In this document: in pieces, positions 5,153 to 57,488 of the stretch
Layout of the letters: every line of letters begins with the position of its first letter
How positions within the stretch are numbered: the stretch's first letter is position 1
Made by a program: the position numbers and the translations under genes
The notes under the pieces: generated by a model
Told to the model about the DNA's origin: nothing
Seen by the model: the letters and a program-made list of their open reading frames with translations, nothing else
Databases searched by the model: none
Origin: Smithella sp.
Lineage (GTDB): Bacteria; Desulfobacterota; Syntrophia; Syntrophales; Smithellaceae
Direction of reading: 5' to 3'
Assembly (NCBI GenBank): GCA_035350895.1
Contig: DAOPVC010000001.1
Coordinates: 2,304 to 66,303 of the forward strand
Length of the DNA stretch: 64,000 bases

Positions 5153-8100
5153 GTGGAAGACGTTTTTAGCTATTTCGAAAAACCGAAAAATTCAGTCAAA
5201 TTTAACGCGATGAAAATTTCCATTGCTTCGCCGGAAAAGATTCTGTCCTGGTCGCATGGCGAAGTGAAAAAACCGGAAACCATCAATTATCGCACGTTTA
5301 AACCGGAAAAGGACGGTCTATTCTGCGCAAAGATTTTCGGTCCGGTCAAGGATTATGAATGTCTTTGCGGACGGTATAAGAGAATGAAGCATCGCGGCGT
5401 CGTCTGCGAAAAATGCGGCGTTGAAGTCATTCAGTCCAAGGTTCGCCGCGAACGCATGGGGCATATTACGCTGGCTACGCCGGTGGCTCACATCTGGTTT
5501 TTGAAAAGTCTTCCCAGCCGTATCGGCAATGCCGTGGACTTGTCGCTCAAAGAGCTGGAAAAAGTCCTTTATTTTGAATCATGGATTGTTCTCGATCCTA
5601 AGAATACGCCGTTAAAGAAAAAAGATCTGCTCAATGATGAAGAGTATGAAGATGCCAGAGAGCAGTATGGGAATGACGGTTTTGTTGCGGGAATTGGCGC
5701 CGAAGCTATCCGGCAGTTGCTGGAAGAAATTGATCTGGAAAAACTTTACGAAGAACTTCGTTCTGAAATTGTCACCTCCGTTTCCGACACCAAGAAAAAG
5801 AAACTGGTGAAGAGATTAAAAGTCGTCGAAGCGCTCCGTAAATCCGGTAATAAGGCCGAATGGATGATTCTCACGGTGCTTCCGGTTATTCCGCCTGATC
5901 TGCGTCCTTTGGTCCCGCTGGACGGAGGCCGTTTTGCCACATCGGATTTAAATGATTTGTATCGAAGGGTGATTAACCGGAATAACCGTCTGAAGAGGCT
6001 TCAGGAACTCAACGCCCCGGAAATCATCATCCGTAACGAGAAGCGCATGCTCCAGGAAGCGGTGGACGTCCTGTTTGACAACGGACGCCGCGGCCGGGCG
6101 ATTACCGGAACGAACAAGAGACCTCTGCGCTCCCTGTCGGATATGCTCAAGGGCAAACAGGGGCGCTTCCGCCAGAATCTGCTGGGGAAGCGAGTTGATT
6201 ATTCCGGACGTTCGGTTGTTACGGTCGGTCCGGATTTGAGGCTGCATCAGTGCGGTTTGCCCAAGAAAATGGCCATCGAATTGTTCAAGCCGTTTATTTA
6301 TAATCGTCTGCTGGAAAAGGGATATGTCACCACGGTCAAGAGCGCCAAGAAAATGGTCGAAAAAGAATCGGCGGAAGTCTGGGATGCGCTCGATGAAGTC
6401 GTGCGCGAATATCCGGTTATTCTGAATCGCGCACCCACGCTGCATCGTCTGGGCATTCAGGCCTTTGAACCGGTGTTGATTGAAGGCAAGGCCATTCAGC
6501 TTCATCCGTTGGTCTGCACCGCTTTCAACGCGGACTTTGACGGTGACCAGATGGCTGTGCATATTCCGCTGTCCATTGAAGCGCAGACGGAAGCCCGTGT
6601 TCTGATGATGTCCACCAATAATATTCTTTCACCGGCCAACGGCAGTCCGATTATCATTCCCAGCCAGGATATCGTTCTGGGTATTTACTACCTGACCCGG
6701 GCGAAAACCGGGGTCAAAGGTGAAGGCATGATTTTCGCCGGTCCGGATGAGGTGCGCTGCGCCGTTGATTCCGGGGCCATTGACTTGCATGCACGGATTA
6801 AGGTGCGCATTAATTCCGAAATAAAAGAAACGACAGCCGGACGAATCATTCTTTCTGAAATCGTTCCGGAGGAAATCAGTTTTGATAATATCAACAAGCT
6901 GATGAATAAAAAGGAACTGACCAGTCTGATCGATCATTGTTATCGTTCGTGCGGTGATAAAACCACCATTATCCTGGCTGATAAACTTAAGGATTTGGGA
7001 TTTAAATACGCCACGATTTCCGGTCTTTCCTTTGCTGTGGGCAATATGATCATTCCGGAGCAAAAGAAAAAAATTGTTTTGCAAGCCGATAAAGATGTTT
7101 TAAAGATTCAAAGACAGTATATGGACGGTTTGATTACGGACGGCGAGCGTTACAACAAGGTGGTTGATATCTGGGCGCAGGCGACCGAAAAAATAGCTTC
7201 CGAAATGCTCAAAGGCATCAGCACGGAAGAAGTGGGCGCCGCTGACGGCAAAAAACGCAGAATTGAAAGTTTCAATCCTATTTACATGATGGCGGATTCC
7301 GGCGCCCGCGGTTCCGGACAGCAGCTCAGACAGCTGGCCGGTATGCGCGGTCTGATGGCCAAGCCCTCCGGTGAAATTATTGAAACGCCGATTACGGCTA
7401 ATTTCCGCGAAGGCCTGACGGTCTTGCAGTACTTTATTTCGACGCACGGCGCCCGCAAAGGTTTGGCTGATACCGCGTTGAAGACAGCCAATTCCGGTTA
7501 CCTGACCCGAAGGCTGGTGGATGTGGCGCAGGATTGCATTATCACCGAGCATGATTGCGAAACCGTTGATGGCGTATACGTTTCCGCGCTGATGGAAGGC
7601 GGTGAAATTATCGAAACCGCCGGCGAGCGCGTGCTGGGAAGGGTGGCCCTGCAGGAAATCAAGGACCCGTTCAGCGGTGAAGTTATCGTCAAAACCAATC
7701 AGGAAATTGATGAAACGCTCGCTGAAAAAATAGATAATGCCGGTATTGAAAGAGTAAACATCAGATCGGTTCTGACCTGTCGTTCCAAACACGGCGTTTG
7801 CGCCATGTGTTACGGACGCGATCTGGCTCACGGCCATCTGGTCAATATCGGTGAAGCGGTCGGTATTGTTGCGGCTCAGTCCATCGGCGAACCGGGAACG
7901 CAGCTGACCATGAGAACGTTCCATATCGGCGGTACGGCGAAATTCGATGAACATTCCACCCTTGAAGCCCGCCATGACGGCATCGTTAAATTCGTCAACT
8001 TGAACACCGTCAAAACCAGAGAAGGCGATCTGGTCGTGATGAAGCGCAACGGCGAAGTGCATGTTCTGGATGAGCAGAAACATGTACGGGGAAAATACGT

Positions 8101-9247
8101 CCTGTCTTATGGGGCACATCTGAAAGTGACCGATAACAGTTCGGTCAAGAAGGGACAGTTGATTGCCGAATGGGATCCCTTCTCCATACCGATTCTGGCG
8201 GAAGTTGACGGAACGATAAAGTTTGACGATATTATCGAAGGAAAAACCATGCAGGAACAGGTCGATGAGGTTACCGGCCTTTCCCGCAAAATCATCGTGG
8301 AATTCAAGGGCGGAGATTTGAGGCCACGCGTGTCAATCAAGGACAGCAAGGGTAAAACGGCCAAGCTGACCGATTCGAATGCCGTTGCCCGTTATCTTTT
8401 GTCCGTTGGTGTAAACCTTGTGGTTTCCGAAGGAGATGAGGTCAAGGCCGGAGATATTCTGGCTAAGATTCCGCGCGAAACAACCAAAACAAAAGATATT
8501 ACGGGTGGCTTGCCCCGTGTGGCTGAACTTTTTGAAGCCCGCAAGCCCAAAGATTTTGCGGTGATCAGCGAAATCAGCGGTGTTGTGTCTTACGGCAAGG
8601 ATGCCAAAGGAAAACGCAAGATCATTGTTACACCGGAAATCGGTGAAGAAAAGGAGTATCTGATTCCTAAAGGTAAGCATATCAGCGTGCAGGAAGGAGA
8701 TGTTGTCATCCCGGGCGATGCATTGATGTCCGGCGTCAATAATCCCCACGATCTCCTTTCCATCAAGGGCGAGAAAGAACTGGCCCGGTATCTGGTTGAC
8801 GAGGTCCAGGAAGTTTACCGTCTGCAGGGTGTGAAGATTAATGACAAACATATGGAAGTCATCGTTCGCCAGATGCTCAGAAGAGTCAAGGTGCTTGATC
8901 CGGGCGATACGGCATTTATTGCCGATGAAAAGATCGAGCGTTACCGCTTCCAGGAAGAGAACGAAAAAGTTATCGCTCAGGGCGGCCGTCCGGCTATCGG
9001 TGAACCCATGTTGCTGGGAATTACCAAGGCGTCGCTTTCCACCCAGAGCTTTATTTCCGCTGCCTCATTCCAGGAAACCACCAAGGTGCTTACGGAAGCG
9101 GCTCTTTCCGGTAAAACCGATTATTTAAGAGGCCTTAAAGAAAACGTGATTATGGGCCGGTTGATCACCGCTGGAACCGGTCTGGTGATGTATCGAAAAC
9201 TGGGAATCAAGCAGGAGAATGAGGAAATCGAAGCGTTGGCAGAATAA
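5153..9247 (+). CDS. rpoC: DNA-directed RNA polymerase subunit beta'
   Basis: 1364 aa with a GTG start. Has zinc-binding [23 protein letters not shown] and the catalytic [12 protein letters not shown] motif. Confidence 0.98.
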
Positions 9248-9357
9248 TTTAAAATATCGACAGAAAACGCTTGACATATATAAATTGAACTGGTACGTAC
9301 CACCGGTTCGCTGCCGGAAAGAATAAAATAAAAGCAGCGATTTGTTTTAGGAGGAAA

Positions 9358-9729
9358 ATGCCGACAATTAGTCAACTGGTTCGCAAAGGCAGAACGAAAA
9401 TTAAAAGAAAAACAAATTCACCGGCGTTGGTCGGTTCGCCGCAGCGTCGTGGTGTTTGTGTCAGGGTGTACACAACGACACCGAAAAAGCCGAATTCAGC
9501 TTTGCGCAAAGTGGCCAGAGTTCGCCTCACCAGCGGATATGAAGTGACTTCATACATACCGGGAATCGGTCATAATCTGCAGGAGCATTCTGTGGTTCTG
9601 GTGCGTGGAGGAAGAGTCAAGGATTTGCCTGGAGTCAGATATCATGTGATCCGAGGTACGCTTGATACGGTCGGAGTTCAGGACCGCAAACAGGGTAGAT
9701 CAAAGTACGGTGCGAAAAAGCCAAGTTAA
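9358..9729 (+). CDS. rpsL: 30S ribosomal protein S12
   Basis: [12 protein letters not shown] start and [16 protein letters not shown] motif. AGGAGG lies upstream. Confidence 0.98.
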
Positions 9730-9742
9730 ACGGAGACTGTAA

Positions 9743-10213
9743 ATGCCGAGAAGACGGGAAATTGAAAAAAGAGATATTTTGCCCGATCCCAAGTTTAATA
9801 ATAAACTGGTAGCAAAATTTATTAATTCATTGTTGAAAAGAGGCAAAAAGAGCGTTGCGGAAAGTATCCTTTACGGTGCTTTTGACATCATTGAAAAGAG
9901 AGTCAAAGAGCAGCCGGTAGAATTTTTTGAAAAGGCGGTTAACAACGTCAAGCCGGTCATTGAAGTCAAATCAAGACGTGTCGGCGGCTCCACGTATCAG
10001 GTGCCAACGGAAGTCGTTCCGTCCAGGCGCACCGCGCTGGCGATTCGCTGGCTGATATCCAACGCACAGGAGCGGACGGAAAAAACCATGCGTGAAAAAT
10101 TGGCTGCGGAGTTGATTGACGCCGCTAACAACCGGGGTGGAGCGATTAAGAAAAAAGAAGCTGTGCACAAGATGGCCGAGGCGAACAAAGCCTTTGCTCA
10201 TTATAAATTTTAA
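9743..10213 (+). CDS. rpsG: 30S ribosomal protein S7
   Basis: [18 protein letters not shown] start, 156 aa, follows rpsL. Confidence 0.97.
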
Positions 10214-52064: not shown

Positions 52065-52715
52065 GTGGCGATGAAAAAAATCTTTGCCGTCGGCGATATT
52101 CACGGTTGTCTGACCAAGCTCAGGGATTTGATGTCCAGGATTGACATGGATGATGAGAACGATACGCTGGTGTTTATCGGCGATTACATCGATCGCGGTC
52201 AATCCAGCCGGGAAGTCGTTGATTATGTCCTGGAACTGAGAGACACGCATAAAAATGTGGTTTGTCTGCTCGGCAATCACGAACAGATGTTCGTGAATTA
52301 TCTCGCCGGAAGAGATGAAGATATGTATCTGAGGAACGGCGGCATGCAAACCCTTCGTTCCTATGAAATTATTCTTACGGACGGCCCGGAGGAACGAGAA
52401 GATAAAATTCCCGCACAGCATCGAAGGTTTTTTGAATCGCTTCTGCCTTATTATGAAACCGAAAAGTATGTTTTTGTTCATGCCGGTCTCAGATCGGGTC
52501 TGCCGCTCAAAGAACAAACCTCCGATGATCTTCTATGGATACGCTACGAGTTTATCAATGCGGAAGATGATTTTGGCAAGACCGTTGTATTCGGCCATAC
52601 TCCTTTTATCAGTCCGTTGATTAAAAAAAACAAGATAGGCATAGATACCGGTGCGGTATACGGCGGCAAACTTACTTGTGTGGAACTGCCGGGCGTCAAA
52701 ATTTTCCAGACGTAA
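52065..52715 (+). CDS. Metallophosphoesterase (PPP-family Ser/Thr phosphatase / ApaH-like)
   Basis: GDIHGC, GDYIDRG, GNHE and GHT motifs. 216 aa. GTG start. Confidence 0.85.
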   Translation: MAMKKIFAVGDIHGCLTKLRDLMSRIDMDDENDTLVFIGDYIDRGQSSREVVDYVLELRDTHKNVVCLLGNHEQMFVNYLAGRDEDMYLRNGGMQTLRSYEIILTDGPEEREDKIPAQHRRFFESLLPYYETEKYVFVHAGLRSGLPLKEQTSDDLLWIRYEFINAEDDFGKTVVFGHTPFISPLIKKNKIGIDTGAVYGGKLTCVELPGVKIFQT

Positions 52716-52744
52716 ATATCACGGGTCGGAATGCAAAAACAAGA

Positions 52745-52771
52745 TTTACAGAGGATGAACTTTGTTATAAT
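52745..52771 (+). promoter_or_regulatory. Promoter-like element with an extended -10
   Basis: TTTACA (52745..52750), a 15-nt spacer including TG, then TGTTATAAT (52763..52771). This would give a leader of about 265 nt before ATG 53043. Confidence 0.4.
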
Positions 52772-52830
52772 CCCTCGTCGCCTATAGTGACCCCATGGTG
52801 CCCTTCAGGGTATTTAGGTTATTCACTCTT

Positions 52831-52889
52831 GGGATAATTCGTCCAGCAAATTTCAGCGCGCTGCGCTTCTGAAACTTGGGGCTCACTAC
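52831..52889 (+). repeat. Hairpin-bearing repeat unit A
   Basis: GGGATAATTCG...AAATTTCAG-N12-CTGAAACTT...GGGGCTCACTAC. It is 42/59 identical to unit B and 53/59 identical to the reverse complement of unit C. Confidence 0.8.
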
Positions 52890-52911
52890 CCTCCGCTTTG
52901 CGGGATAATTT

Positions 52912-52935
52912 CCAATCCCGATTTACCGGGATTGG
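52912..52935 (+). other. Perfect 9-bp hairpin between repeat units A and B
   Basis: CCAATCCCG, loop atttac, then CGGGATTGG. The 3' arm overlaps the first bases of unit B. Confidence 0.6.
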
Positions 52936-52991
52936 ATAGTTCGATTTATAAATTTCATTACGTTGCACTTATGAAATTTGAGTCTCACTAC
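52933..52991 (+). repeat. Hairpin-bearing repeat unit B
   Basis: TGGATAGTTCG...AAATTTCAT-N12-ATGAAATTT...GAGTCTCACTAC. The 9-bp stem at 52950..52979 is perfect. Confidence 0.8.
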
Positions 52992-53042
52992 GACGAATGC
53001 TTTACTATAGTTCAGCAAGTCTCATGATATGGGAGTTCAACA

Positions 53043-53945
53043 ATGAAAATTATCGAATGTGTGCCGAATTTCAGTGAGGGATGCGACTCTGAGAAACTGA
53101 AGGCAATCGCCGGAGTTTTTAAATCCTTTCCTCATGTCCGGCTGATCGATTTCAGCGGGGATGCCGATCATAACCGGAGCGTTTTCTCTTTTTTGGGAAA
53201 GCCTGAGGATGTGCTGGACGCGGCGCTTGCTTCCTGCGGAAAAGCGCTGGAATTAATCGACATGCGCAGGCAATCGGGCGTCCATCCGCGGCTGGGAGCG
53301 GTCGATGTTGTTCCTTTTATTCCGCTGGCCGGAGCGCGAATGAAAGACGCCGTCAATATAGCCCATGCGTTCGGTAAGCAGTTTTCGGAACAATTCGGCG
53401 TGCCGGTGTATTTCTATGGTTTCGCGGCGCGCAATGTTCAATGCATTGAACTTCCGGATGTTCGCCGCGGAGGTTATGAGCGTCTGGCTGATAAGATGTC
53501 CCGCGCGGAAGGTGTTCCCGATGTGGGAGAACGCACATTCAATGCCCGTTCCGGCGCCACGGCCGTGGGCGCCCGGGATGTGCTGGTGGCCTACAATATC
53601 AATCTTGCCTCTGACGATCTGCTTCTGGCGCGGCATATCGCCTCGCGAATCAGAGAAAAGGGCGGTGGACTGAAGAACGTACGGGCGATTGGCGTGATGC
53701 TGAAAGAACAAGGCGTAGCTCAGGTATCCATCAATCTGATCGATTGTAAAGAAACGCCATTGAAGACGGTATTTGACCGGGTAAAAACTCTCGCTGCCGA
53801 GGGAGGGGTCCGGATTCTGGAATCGGAGCTCATCGGTCTGGCGCCGCAGTGCGCTTTTGCCGGCGCCAAGCCCGAATATCTAAAACTGAAAAATTATGAC
53901 GAAAACCGGATACTGGAAACACACATAAAACGTTTATTGAAATGA
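53043..53945 (+). CDS. ftcD: Glutamate formimidoyltransferase (FtcD N-terminal-type formiminotransferase)
   Basis: The MKIIECVPNFSEGCD start is diagnostic of the family. 300 aa. GGGAG lies 7 nt upstream. Confidence 0.85.
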   Translation: MKIIECVPNFSEGCDSEKLKAIAGVFKSFPHVRLIDFSGDADHNRSVFSFLGKPEDVLDAALASCGKALELIDMRRQSGVHPRLGAVDVVPFIPLAGARMKDAVNIAHAFGKQFSEQFGVPVYFYGFAARNVQCIELPDVRRGGYERLADKMSRAEGVPDVGERTFNARSGATAVGARDVLVAYNINLASDDLLLARHIASRIREKGGGLKNVRAIGVMLKEQGVAQVSINLIDCKETPLKTVFDRVKTLAAEGGVRILESELIGLAPQCAFAGAKPEYLKLKNYDENRILETHIKRLLK

Positions 53946-53946
53946 A

Positions 53947-54243
53947 TCATGTTTTTCTCTTGGCTTCTTTCTTTTTTGCTTTTGCCAGCGTTTTCAGCAT
54001 TTTTTTATCGGGAGCGTTGTTCGTCGGCGCGGCAACCGGTTGCGGCAGAACAGACTGTTCTTTAGAAAAAGCTGAAGTCATTTCTTTTTTATCACCATCC
54101 GCTTTATTCCGATCTGCATGTATTTTTTTGGCGATTGCTTCCGCCGCCATTCTGCCGAATTGACCGATAAATCCGGCAATCAGAACCAGGACAATCCATT
54201 TCAGTACAGACCAGGTGCTGATATATTCCAGTAAGTCGTTCAT
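53947..54243 (-). CDS. Small single-TM protein with a Lys-rich tail, hypothetical
   Basis: 98 aa with a TM helix (WIVLVLIAGFIGQFG). It starts 14 nt downstream of the HAD gene on the same strand. A competing + strand ORF at 53942..54163 cannot be fully excluded. Confidence 0.45.
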   Translation of the reverse strand: MNDLLEYISTWSVLKWIVLVLIAGFIGQFGRMAAEAIAKKIHADRNKADGDKKEMTSAFSKEQSVLPQPVAAPTNNAPDKKMLKTLAKAKKKEAKRKT

Positions 54244-54257
54244 TATTTGCTCAATAC

Positions 54258-54872: not shown

Positions 54873-55918
54873 CGCTTGATTCCTCCTCTAAATACCCGGG
54901 AAATAGCGGAGCGGAAAGGTTTTCTTAAAATCCCTTTTTCCGTGATAATTGCCGTGATCAGCCTTGCGGGCGTCACATCGAACGCCGGATTGTAAACGTT
55001 TATGCCTTGCGGCGCACTGCGGACGCCCTTGATGCTGGTGACTTCTTCGCCGTTTCTTTCTTCAATGGGAATAGCCGCGCCCGTTTGTAAAGAAACGTCA
55101 ATGGTGGAAAGCGGAGCGGCAACATAAAATGGAATATTATGGGCCTTGGCCAGGACCGCCAGAGCATACGTGCCGATTTTATTGGCCGCGTCTCCATTGG
55201 CGGTGATTCTATCCGCTCCGACGATAATCTTGTCGATCTTTCCCTGCTGCATCAGAAATCCTGCCATGTTATCCGTAATTAACGTGCAGGGGATTTTTTC
55301 TTTTTTTAATTCCCAGGCGGTGAGCCTTGCGCCCTGCAGGACAGGTCTGGTCTCGTCCACGAAAACATGCAGTTTTTTACCCTGTTCGTTGGCCGCGCGA
55401 ATCACGCCCAGTGCCGTGCCGTATCCCGCGGTGGCCAGCGCGCCTGCATTGCAGTGAGTGAGGATGTTGTCACCGCCGGCAAAGAGTAAACGGCCGTTTT
55501 TACCCATCCGGCGGTTGATGGCGATATCTTCCGCGCAGATTCGTTTTGCTTCATCCGTGAGCTCTTTTACCAGATTGGCTTGTTTCTTGTGATGATTCCG
55601 ATCAGCGACTTTTTTCATGCGTTCCAGCGCCCAGAAAAGGTTGCGTGCCGTCGGCCGCGCCTGAGCTATCTCGTCGCAGAGAGTGAAAAACGTCTGCCGA
55701 AATTTTTCCGGTGATAAAGAGGGAAGGTTAAGTGCGCCCAGCGCGGCACCCATCGCGGCGGCCACGCCGATGGCGGGAGCGCCGCGCACGGTTAAATCTT
55801 TGATACAGGCAATAACGTCTTTGTATGATTTGCAGGTTATATATTTCTCGGCGAGCGGCAAAGCGTTCTGATCAATCAAAACAACAGAATTGTTTTTCCA
55901 AAAAATTGTTTTAATCAT
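54869..55918 (-). CDS. mtnA: S-methyl-5-thioribose-1-phosphate isomerase (MtnA / eIF-2B-related family)
   Basis: VVLIDQNALPL...VRGAPAIGVAAAMG motifs. The likely start is ATG 55918 (MIKTIFWKNN), with GGAG 8 nt upstream. The track ORF extends to GTG 55966 through the repeat element. Confidence 0.88.
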   Translation of the reverse strand: MIKTIFWKNNSVVLIDQNALPLAEKYITCKSYKDVIACIKDLTVRGAPAIGVAAAMGAALGALNLPSLSPEKFRQTFFTLCDEIAQARPTARNLFWALERMKKVADRNHHKKQANLVKELTDEAKRICAEDIAINRRMGKNGRLLFAGGDNILTHCNAGALATAGYGTALGVIRAANEQGKKLHVFVDETRPVLQGARLTAWELKKEKIPCTLITDNMAGFLMQQGKIDKIIVGADRITANGDAANKIGTYALAVLAKAHNIPFYVAAPLSTIDVSLQTGAAIPIEERNGEEVTSIKGVRSAPQGINVYNPAFDVTPARLITAIITEKGILRKPFRSAISRVFRGGIKR

Positions 55919-55932
55919 GGTGAAACTCCAAT

Positions 55933-55991
55933 TTAGTGAGTCCCAAGTTTCAGAAGCGTAGCGCACTGAAATTTGTTGGACGAACTATCCC
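55933..55991 (-). repeat. Hairpin-bearing repeat unit C (inverted copy)
   Basis: Its reverse complement is 53/59 identical to unit A, and 60/69 when extended to 56001. It lies in the gatB-mtnA spacer and ends 14 nt upstream of the mtnA ATG. Confidence 0.8.
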
Positions 55992-56045
55992 AGGAGCGAA
56001 GCGACGTGGAACTGTTGCAGGAACCGACAGCAGCTTGCTTTAGGG

Positions 56046-57488
56046 TCAACCTTGAGGTGGTCCGGCGAGCATCTTTTTAAGAAGTTCGTTGACCAACTGC
56101 GGGTTGGCTTTTCCCTTGGTTGCTTTCATCACCTGACCGACAAAGAAACCAAAAACTTTTTCCTTTCCACCGCGATACTCAGCAGCCTGCGCCTGATTGG
56201 CTTCAATGATGGAGGTGATAGCCTTGATGAGTTCCCCTTCATCCGTAATCTGTACCAATCCTTTTTCCTTGATGATGGTCTGCGGCGATTTACCGGTCTT
56301 GTACATATCCTCAACGACTTCTTTGGCCATTTTCCCGCTGATGGCGCCTTCTTCAATCAGTCTGATCATATCGGCCAAAGACTGCGCGGAAATGGGACAT
56401 TGACGGATATCACGTTTATCTTCATTAAGGAACTTCATGACGTCACCCATGATCCAGTTACTCGCAATCTTAGGTTTCGCGCAGATTTTGACAACGTCTT
56501 CGTAGTAAAGCGCCAGCGCCTTGTCCGAGGTTAATACCCCGGCGTCATAGGCCGGAATTTGATAGTCTTTGACAAATCTCTCCCGTTTGGCCAGCGGCAG
56601 TTCGGGAAGTTCTTCCTTGATTCTTTCTACCCAGGCATCATCCACCAGAATTGGCACTAAATCGGGATCCGGGAAGTAGCGGTAATCGTGCGCTTCTTCC
56701 TTGCTGCGCATGGAATTGGTCGCGCCCTGCGCGTCATCCCACAGGCGTGTTTCCTGAACAACGGCACCGCCGTTTTCCACAAGATATTGCTGGCGCTTGA
56801 TTTCATACTCCAGGGCTCGCTGCACGTTCCGGAAGGAGTTCATGTTCTTTAACTCCGTTCGGGTGCCGAATTCCTTCTGCCCTCTGGGGCGGATCGAGAC
56901 GTTGGCATCGCAGCGGAAGGAGCCCTCCTCCATGTTGCCGTCGCAGATTTCCAGATACACCAGAATTTCATGCAGGCGTTTGAGATAATCGGCGGCTTCC
57001 TCCGGTGAGCGCATGTCCGGTTCGCTGACAATTTCGATTAACGGAACACCGGTGCGGTTCAGGTCAACGTAACTGACCGGATTGTGCTCGTCGTGAAGAA
57101 GTTTCCCGGCGTCTTCCTCCATGTGAATCCGGGTGATGCCGATTTTCTTCTGCTCTCCGTTGACATCCAAAATGACATGTCCGTGCTCTGCCAGCGGATA
57201 GGCATATTGCGATATCTGATAGCCTTTGGGCAGATCGGGATAAAAATAATTTTTTCGGGCGAACTCGCAGGATTTGTTGATTGCGCAGTTTGTCGCCAAC
57301 GCCATTTTCATCGCGTATTCGACGACTTTTTTATTCAGCACCGGTAAAACGCCGGGCATGCCCAGACAAACCGGGCAGGTGTGGCTGTTGGGTGCTCCCC
57401 CGAATTTGGTGGAGCAACTGCAGAAAATTTTCGTATTCGTTAACATTTGGGCGTGAACTTCCAGCCCGATAACTGCTTCAAAATCCAT
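56046..57488 (-). CDS. gatB: Asp/Glu-tRNA amidotransferase subunit B
   Basis: 480 aa. [15 protein letters not shown] start, [15 protein letters not shown] motif and a C-terminal YqeY-like tail. Confidence 0.96.

Follow-up and report, generated by a model that had tools for sequence, protein, structure and literature searches.

The 327-nucleotide (nt) gap between a metallophosphatase gene and an ftcD-like gene in a 64-kb stretch of Smithella sp. DNA (contig DAOPVC010000001.1; the whole stretch is called the window below) is probably one local copy, composite in build, of a small family of interspersed repeats in the Smithellaceae. The gap extends from 52716 to 53042, between the end of the metallophosphatase open reading frame (ORF) at 52715 and the start of the FTCD_N/FTCD ORF at 53043, and its unusual length, remarked on in a preliminary description made from the letters of the sequence, was confirmed. 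A modular, hairpin-rich repeat is dispersed among unrelated genes of Smithella-type bacteria and in some phage contigs. The family is best read as a composite palindromic interspersed repeat of the BIME/BOX/REP kind, which has its own ribosome-binding site and is not a switch reserved for this gene. A genome-wide small repeat family was among the possibilities named in the preliminary description, and it is this possibility that the dispersed copies in other gaps, loci and contigs support.

The ftcD-like protein retrieved 80 genome loci, all from Smithella/Syntrophaceae-type metagenome-assembled genomes (MAGs). Its nearest named relatives are the glutamate formimidoyltransferases of Smithella and Syntrophaceae MAGs, and the window comes from a Smithella-like (Smithellaceae, Syntrophales) chromosome. 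In 69 of the 77 Smithellaceae species loci that keep both genes the phosphatase-ftcD gap measures -4 to +6 nt, and in only eight is it long (104-244 nt); a single 46-nt value among the Smithellaceae loci was an artefact of a truncated match, and the 104-nt gap of L011 (2897-3000) is masked as an N run and unreadable. L081 has a gap of 316 nt and L083-L086 one of 220 nt, and the filled loci, window included, range from 104 to 327 nt. Since 69 of the 77 relatives have abutting genes and only eight have long gaps, the 327-nt gap is a derived and patchy insertion. Ranking the loci by FtcD identity leaves long and short gaps intermixed, with 2 nt in L040 (82%) and L001 (80%), 138 nt in L009 (80%) and 244 nt in L005 (78%).

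The long gaps are mosaics of the same modules in differing numbers. In the closest relative, L081, whose FtcD is 99% and whose flanking DNA 95.7-96.9% identical to that of the window, the order of the interior (52781-53011) has been rearranged: of the two core hairpin units found in the window, A and B, a B-like unit there precedes an A-like unit, and the insert that the window has upstream of unit A is found within the A loop. The element is polymorphic in presence and absence at orthologous junctions, and its modules turn over quickly.

Parts of the ftcD leader

The leader, its two flanking genes and a second copy of the element in the window consist of the following features:

52065..52715, + strand: calcineurin-like metallophosphatase, the gene upstream of the gap (Pfam PF00149, E = 4e-19)
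52716..52742, + strand: degenerate head module (ATATCACGGGTCGG...), directly 3' of the phosphatase stop codon (head alignment; family consensus (A)ATCACGGGTATGAAC)
52743..52771, + strand: AT-rich box with TTTACA (52745-52750) and TGTTATAAT (52763-52771), the degenerate right half of the 13-bp palindrome GGGTAT-N-ATACCC (head alignment)
52772..52835, + strand: hairpin hp1 (CCCTCGTCG ... TCACTCTTGGGAT), with two nested mini-hairpin inserts in its loop
52781-52792 plus 52814-52822, + strand: insX, insert in the hp1 loop (same inserts inside unit loops elsewhere)
52793-52813, + strand: insY, nested insert in the hp1 loop (same inserts inside unit loops elsewhere)
52829..52893, + strand: unit A, core hairpin module of the GTCC...GGAC subfamily (alignments; 74-bit model match)
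52889..52906, + strand: small hairpin hp1' (CCCTCCGC TTT GCGGGAT); found after a unit also in L169, L180 and L081
52911..52936, + strand: hairpin hpT (TCCAATCCCG ATTTAC CGGGATTGGA), 10 bp, 52911-52920 with 52927-52936
52931..52995, + strand: unit B, the same core module, GACT...AGTC subfamily, with a TTACGYTGCAC loop (alignments; 69.7-bit model match, unit in seed)
52996..53042, + strand: tail, with a degenerate hairpin GCTTTAC TATA GTTCAGC (52999-53016), GTCTCA and then the ribosome-binding site (sequence, predicted fold)
53043..53945, + strand: glutamate formimidoyltransferase (ftcD-like), the gene downstream of the gap (Pfam FTCD_N E = 4e-61, FTCD E = 5e-26)
55919..56045, - strand: the window's other copy of the element, occupying the gatB-mtnA gap (module BLAST; 81-bit model match)

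An element of this family is composed, in fixed polarity, of a head, small GC-rich hairpins, one to three core hairpins of ~60 nt and a tail with a ribosome-binding site; one to three units were counted per element. Units A (52832-52889) and B (52934-52991) are 58 nt each, 72% identical and 102 nt apart, in agreement with the two similar units of shared architecture described at the outset. The pattern GGATARTTCG-N25-45-CTCACTAC has two sites in the window, units A and B, as against none in 100 shuffles. Both units have the hairpin arms AAATTTCA and TGAAAYTT. These arms had been correctly recognised, but the loop of 12 nt ascribed to them holds only when G52856-C52869 is counted in the stem, 14 nt lying between the arms as written. 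The closing pair G52856-C52869 of unit A is T52958-A52971 in unit B, a compensatory double change, and the A/C mismatch 52850/52875 of unit A is an A-T pair in unit B. Both changes had been reported before, and the covariation was found to extend to all 14 pairs of a longer hairpin. In unit A this hairpin comprises an outer helix (52841-52844/52879-52882) and an inner helix (52847-52856/52869-52878) between the conserved flanks GGATAATTC and CTCACTA; the 74-bit model match of this unit is expected because it is in the seed alignment. Near-identical relatives of the B-type unit occur in L005, L083, L006 and L037. An origin of unit B by local duplication of A was rejected, since both unit types have closer relatives at other loci than each other. 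The two units represent different subfamilies of the core hairpin and not a duplication selected for ftcD.

Among the smaller modules, hp1 without its inserts takes the form CCCAC-N-GGGAT or CCCTCCGC..GCGGGAT (L023, L037 and others), and the inserts recur within unit loops of L001, L003, L009, L081, L091, L115, L119 and L200. The hp1'-type module is the commonest element immediately upstream of units, and the CCAAT...ATTGGAT module (hpT type) is found in that place in 25 of 118 instances. The hairpin hpT had been described as a perfect hairpin of 9 bp; it is real and 10 bp long (52911-52936). The GGGAG of the tail (53031-53035), the ribosome-binding site, ends 7 nt before the ftcD ATG and lies, in the predicted fold, within the 3' arm of a 6-bp hairpin (53020-53025/53029-53034). 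Two further candidates were discarded. The long-range complement between 52785-52794 and 52879-52888 exists as had been noted (90%), but it is not conserved, being lost in L081 (TAGTGACC to TCGTGGCC) and having one partner in an optional insert module. A leader peptide or small ORF was rejected on the grounds that the head ATG is not kept and that indels between copies are not multiples of three.

An exact extended -10 with TTTACA upstream had been proposed as the start of a leader of about 265 nt. The motifs are present but a promoter is not supported: the TTTACA/TATAAT pair has a 15-nt spacer, for which reason no promoter was called at TTTACA/TGTTATAAT, and the consensus scan of 52600-53150 returned neither a promoter nor a terminator-like site. 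According to the head alignment the supposed extended -10 is the degenerate right half of the head palindrome, in which GGTATTATACCC has turned into TGTTATAATCCC. The AT-rich box 52743-52771 has an identical copy in L081 only, the one locus in which the pair is kept. Other -10-like boxes are the invariant GAT-nn-T of the 5' flank and a TATTAT-like box of the head. The leader has no U-tract that would make an intrinsic terminator, its hairpins being followed by AUAAUUCG or CUCAYUA, and no terminator/antiterminator pair was found in the scan of 52600-53150. Rfam 15 gave no relevant match at E <= 10 in the same interval and none at gathering score across the whole window, which agrees with the initial observation that no named riboswitch class could be recognised.

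Pairing and modules in the repeat family

Pairing statistics were obtained from an alignment of 150 distinct units. The core is an imperfect hairpin of ~60 nt made of an outer helix (4 bp) and an inner one (10 bp) with a bulge of 2 nt between them, and of a loop of fixed length and conserved sequence; it is flanked by the invariant GGAT..TTC (5') and TCA (3'), in their wider form GGATnnTTC and TCAYTA. Paired states occupy 96% of the cells, compared to 82% in column shuffles and at most 56% with slid partners, and double changes are seen in 14 of 14 pairs, six of which were unused in unit selection. Pair 13-54 is GC in 136 units and AU in 14 with none unpaired, pair 16-51 is UA in 73 and CG in 65, and pair 28-41, the closing pair discussed above, is GC in 85, AU in 39, UA in 8 and CG in 7. 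The hairpin of the unit is maintained. Its arms occur in at least eight variants which are complementary throughout (AAAT/ATTT, AAGC/GCTT, AAGT/ACTT, CAAT/ATTG and others), and the distance between them is exactly 14 nt in 163 of 186 units.

Over 2100 pair cells, G·U/U·G (n = 32) did not exceed A·C/C·A (n = 41). This absence of a wobble excess argues against strand-specific RNA selection and is in keeping with a palindrome at the DNA level or with recently copied units decaying neutrally. The proposal that the compensatory changes reflect selection on structure is accordingly upheld in part: the covariation is real, but it is the signature of palindromic-repeat subfamilies and not of selection on the ftcD leader.

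About 10 of the 186 units have an extra mini-hairpin of 20-21 nt in the loop, and one has a nested pair. These mini-hairpins, CCTATAGTGACC-TTTAGGTTAT and ..GCCCTTYAGGGT.., are inserted in the loops of two kinds of host hairpin and are sometimes nested. They were seen at 52781-52822 of the window and in L001, L003, L009, L081, L091, L110, L115, L119, L181, L200 and L206.

Copies are most alike across the unit itself, their similarity fading at roughly -120 and +140 nt. The flanking modules stand in fixed polarity and nearly always on the strand of the unit. A head motif occurs 100-150 nt upstream of the unit and on the same strand in 45 of 118 instances, and 25 of 60 heads lie directly against a long ORF's stop codon. 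The shortest head is TCAC followed by the perfect 13-bp palindrome GGGTAT-N-ATACCC (consensus (A)ATCACGGGTATGAAC); in longer heads, other palindromes centred on GCAAGC have been inserted into it and split it. The 13-bp palindrome is a possible protein-binding site. Examples of heads are those of L037 (1074-1095), L118, L187 and L096, and that of the window (52716-52774) is degenerate. The small GC-rich hairpins of the family are of the forms CCC...GGGAT and CCAAT...ATTGGAT. Part of the copies end in the tail GAGTCTCATTAAATTGGAGTTTCA(A/C)(A/C)ATG, found before ftcD, mtnA and other genes, which supplies the ribosome-binding site for whatever gene comes next.

Copies at other gene boundaries and in phages

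The third unit of the window is located at 55929-55993 on the minus strand, and the tail of its element runs into the mtnA ATG at 55918. The gatB-mtnA junction is filled in eight loci (the window, L007, L014, L021, L024, L030, L031 and L047), and in ~28 related loci, including L083 (FtcD 92% identical), the two genes overlap there by ATGA or TAATG. For the mtnA-like gene (IF-2B family) the most likely start is the ATG at 55918, giving a 350-aa product that matches the 349-aa orthologues; the GTG at 55966 given in the ORF list falls inside the repeat, and the annotated start is corrected from 55966 to 55918. The gatB gene of the window (56046-56066, minus strand) ends in ...MLAGPPQG* compared to ...MLAG* in relatives. 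Where TAA and then the TCACGGGTATG head usually stand, the window has CCACCTCAAGGTTGA, and the 5' end of the element has therefore altered the C-terminus of the upstream protein.

Comparing the long gaps by short-word BLAST against the window and all related loci located modules, pointing either way, also downstream of ftcD and in further gaps around smc, ftsY and the phosphatase gene. L001, a locus without the upstream leader, has an inverted copy immediately past the ftcD stop, and L037 has a copy downstream of ftcD in the same orientation. The covariance model gave 31 matches in 83 Smithellaceae loci (487 kb) and three units in the window, all three of which are in the seed.

Metagenomes were searched with the fixed-spacing pattern GGATNNTTCG-N10-TTYA-N14-TRAA-N8-CTCA (18 fixed and 2 half-fixed bases), and at least 120 metagenome contigs contained it. 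Among the matches listed, units were situated in co-directional gaps (24 sense, 26 antisense), between divergent genes (n = 13) and between convergent genes (n = 7), and the 150 ORFs flanking them match 215 Pfam families, none of which is enriched. The commonest family beside units, with six members, is the response-regulator receiver domain and not a folate or histidine family. The contig L155 was assigned to the Smithellaceae via its Der GTPase; placing metagenome contigs by the proteins of the window yielded no overlapping orthologues. A plasmid collection gave no match.

Adjacent unit pairs within 400 nt were more often in the same orientation (n = 15) than inverted (n = 7). The tandem stretches of L169 and L180, with spacings of 102 and 99 nt respectively, can be aligned with the window throughout and share its layout of unit, CTCACTAC-CCCTCCGC..GCGGGAT, CCAAT..ATTGGAT and unit. 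Their neighbours are unrelated to ftcD, being a dienelactone hydrolase in L169 and a TPR glycosyltransferase and a methyltransferase in L180, and a further tandem is located in L155 beside the Der GTPase and a PilZ protein. Arrangement as unit, small hairpins and unit at ~100-nt spacing is a feature of the family.

The unit pattern also matched 14 IMG/VR viral contigs (L207-L220); the head pattern had no matches in viral contigs. Unit density was 34 model matches in 136 kb of phage contigs, as compared to 31 in 487 kb of Smithellaceae loci. About 15 of the phage matches run directly into a long ORF, either as TTGGAGCTCATT-ATG (CTCATT-ATG) or as CTCATTAGGAGG-N6-8-ATG, and exact register with a start or stop codon was seen for 17 of 21 units in phages, compared to 17 of 122 in metagenome contigs. 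Of ten such downstream ORFs, four encode major head proteins (phrog_371 in L216, phrog_1005 in L212, and both phrog_29592 and phrog_4523 in L207 and in L208), a count somewhat inflated by the enrichment of IMG/VR contigs for structural-gene regions. A portal protein, a head-tail adaptor and a tail assembly chaperone are encoded by one downstream ORF each, and L207 and L208 carry related head-protease genes. L217 has, at 5990-9950, a row of five consecutive genes on the plus strand, every one of which terminates exactly at an antisense unit, and their stop codons are provided by TAATGAG, the reverse complement of the CTCATTA end of the unit.

Origin, alternatives and related repeats

The history of the ftcD gap may be depicted as follows: The ancestral phosphatase-ftcD junction was probably one of abutting, translationally coupled genes, into which the element would have been inserted and within which it would later have been rebuilt. 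The repeat may spread, or be reshuffled and homogenised, as DNA, through either transposition or exchange between copies (recombination and gene conversion). Insertion at an overlap junction would break translational coupling, and the built-in GGGAG site could keep ftcD translatable after the coupling is lost. The hairpins would join the operon transcript and may alter mRNA stability, decay or translation; sensing of a ligand by the ftcD leader would not be implied. Effects of this kind are described for BIME, ERIC, Correia and BOX repeats in PMC3049150, and are described for REP repeats as well; protective operon structures in general are treated in PMC5927463.

That the leader serves ftcD alone as a cis-regulatory RNA, for instance as a tandem riboswitch or an attenuator that responds to a signal of folate or of the histidine pathway, is hardly credible. 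It is a structured leader which folds better than its shuffles over its whole length (z = -4.1), holds two similar hairpin units with compensatory changes and lies 5' of the gene for a folate-dependent enzyme. However, 69 of the 77 orthologous loci are without it, the order of its modules differs in the closest strain L081, the unit was found beside 215 unrelated Pfam families in both orientations among the matches listed, and the terminator/antiterminator pair, the U-tract and an Rfam family are all missing. Many copies in both orientations regardless of the genes were named in the preliminary description itself as speaking against the cis-regulatory reading, and what was found is dozens of copies, oriented either way and next to genes of any kind. 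The preliminary description had alternatively suggested a palindromic operator for a dimeric regulator. If the inverted repeats AAATTTCA-N14-TGAAATTT were DNA operators of a dimeric transcription factor and the copies its regulon, then the palindromic arms at a fixed 14-nt spacing in 163 of 186 units, the conserved loop and the symmetric G·U and A·C mismatches, which fit recognition at the DNA level, would all be accounted for. Yet this too is very improbable: the arm sequence varies among copies, at least eight variants keeping only their complementarity, so that no single half-site is conserved, copies are found between convergent genes and at 3' ends, and the flanking genes have no functional theme.

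A portable expression leader kept by selection is also unlikely, but it overlaps with the interspersed repeat favoured here and differs from it in whether the copies are functional or merely tolerated. The hairpins would then protect or punctuate polycistronic mRNA at gene boundaries, the 3' end of the unit (GGAG-CTCATT-ATG) would give a ribosome-binding site and start context, and the copy before ftcD would be a selected intercistronic platform, possibly with its own promoter. Speaking for such a role are the higher unit density in IMG/VR contigs, the exact register of phage units with starts and stops, the structural genes downstream of them, including major head genes in four contigs (somewhat inflated as mentioned), the ribosome-binding tail before ftcD and mtnA, the resemblance of GAT-nn-T in the 5' flank and of the TATTAT-like head box to -10 hexamers, and a weak sense bias, 54 versus 38 units facing a gene start. 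Against it, antisense copies equal sense copies in co-directional chromosomal gaps (26 versus 24 among the matches listed), copies are also found between convergent genes, 69 of the 77 relatives have no leader at the ftcD junction, G·U is not in excess over A·C mismatches, no promoter was called, and modules of varying length leave no conserved -35 spacing. The phage copies would allow a functional reading but do not rescue an ftcD-specific role. A bolder joint proposal is doubtful: a portable gene-boundary cassette of Smithellaceae and their phages, as opposed to inert repeat DNA, that settles precisely at stop/start junctions and grows by insertion of 20-21-nt mini-hairpins into its own hairpin loops, whose CTCATTA end gives a ribosome-binding site and start context in one direction and tandem stop codons (TAATGAG) in the other, and which phages retain before their most highly expressed (major head) genes, as in four contigs. 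If true, growth by loop insertion would point to an unrecognised transposition or template-switch mechanism targeting hairpins in single-stranded DNA.

Several observations weigh against an interspersed, mobile repeat. There are no convincing terminal inverted repeats, (A)ATCACGGGTATGAAC on the left not being an inverted copy of ...GAGTCTCAYTA on the right, and no clear target-site duplication, filled and empty junctions sharing 1-3 nt of A/T microhomology in comparisons between species. Crude Y1-transposase probes (IS200 TnpA and YafM) gave no tblastn match in 1.25 Mb, no transposase family is among the top families of the ORFs flanking units in the matches listed, and the ORFs between paired units encode a DAP epimerase, an HSP20 and a radical SAM protein but no mobilising enzyme. 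With enzyme, terminal repeats and clear duplication not found, mobility is inferred from presence/absence and rearrangement only. Furthermore, only three units are present in the window and copies were counted over contigs and loci, not in one complete genome; the gene calls in the context census are crude long ORFs; and among 128 chromosomal units 54 face a same-strand ORF start within 150 nt as compared to 38, a weak lean. The exact register in phages and the four major head genes suggest that at least some copies are used and not merely tolerated.

Among known systems, BOX of Streptococcus pneumoniae (boxA-boxB(n)-boxC) and the enterobacterial BIMEs are the closest kinds, followed by REP/REPIN, with MITEs (transposable elements of miniature size with inverted repeats) and PeSLs (promoter-early stem-loop cassettes) more distant. 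BOX and BIME are presented in PMC3049150 as composite, intergenic and base-paired, with a variable number of internal modules. The family resembles them in being short (under ~350 nt), intergenic and highly base-paired, with sub-sequences in regular order, in the number and length of internal modules varying between strains, in the lack of a functional gene class, and in the effects on neighbours to be expected by co-transcription. It differs in having no sequence similarity to them and no terminal inverted repeats of the boxA/boxC type, and in its nested modules (mini-hairpins in hairpin loops), a ribosome-binding tail in register with the start codon and phage copies. By its ordered sub-sequences with polarity and its variable internal module number the element would qualify as a composite interspersed repeat.

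The REP motif is GTAG. The flanks of the unit are instead GGATnnTTC and TCAYTA, the stems are AT-rich and the unit measures ~60 nt. Unlike in REPINs, direct tandems (n = 15) exceed inverted doublets (n = 7), and no RAYT-like gene was found near any copy with the crude probe. Shared with REP/REPIN are a short imperfect palindrome core with conserved single-stranded flanks, many intergenic copies, subfamilies with compensatory stem changes, and the lack of terminal inverted repeats or clear target duplications. Mobilisation of REP sequences by RAYT transposases is the concept put forward in PMC3116915 and PMC3337134. The MITEs, such as Correia elements and RUP, are according to PMC3049150 small and non-coding, with possible effects on neighbouring genes. 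The family is likewise small and non-coding, with presence/absence polymorphism at orthologous sites and strong secondary structure; unlike MITEs it has no terminal inverted repeats, and a target-site duplication is not demonstrable. The PeSLs of T4-type phages are small intergenic cassettes of promoter and stem-loop tied to modular shuffling among close relatives, as given in PMC4122927 and PMC2839356. The repeat is similar in that a hairpin is joined to expression signals and repeated at phage gene boundaries, with modules reordered between 96-97% identical strains. It is mainly chromosomal, however, -10-like boxes are all that was seen of a promoter, and its phage copies precede late structural genes, not early genes as PeSLs do. 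The element lacks the REP-specific features (GTAG, inverted doublets) and the MITE-specific feature (terminal inverted repeats), and in each test applied it behaved unlike a riboswitch specific to one gene.

No paper on this repeat family was found in the literature, and it represents an undescribed composite palindromic family of an uncultured syntrophic lineage, unusual in its nested hairpin-in-loop modules, its built-in ribosome-binding site and its phage copies. For annotation, a false riboswitch candidate is removed, and Smithella operon junctions of hundreds of nt, where most are overlaps, find an explanation. Should the association with phages reflect a function, these organisms would have in the unit a compact and transferable leader for high expression, and the unit would also link phage contigs to Smithellaceae hosts by sequence.

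Downstream of ftcD, a minus-strand ORF of 98 aa, unassigned to a family and without a Pfam match, is located at 53946-54257 of the window and is also present in L081-L086. An element array takes the place of this ORF in L037 (3895-4075), between ftcD and a HAD hydrolase gene.

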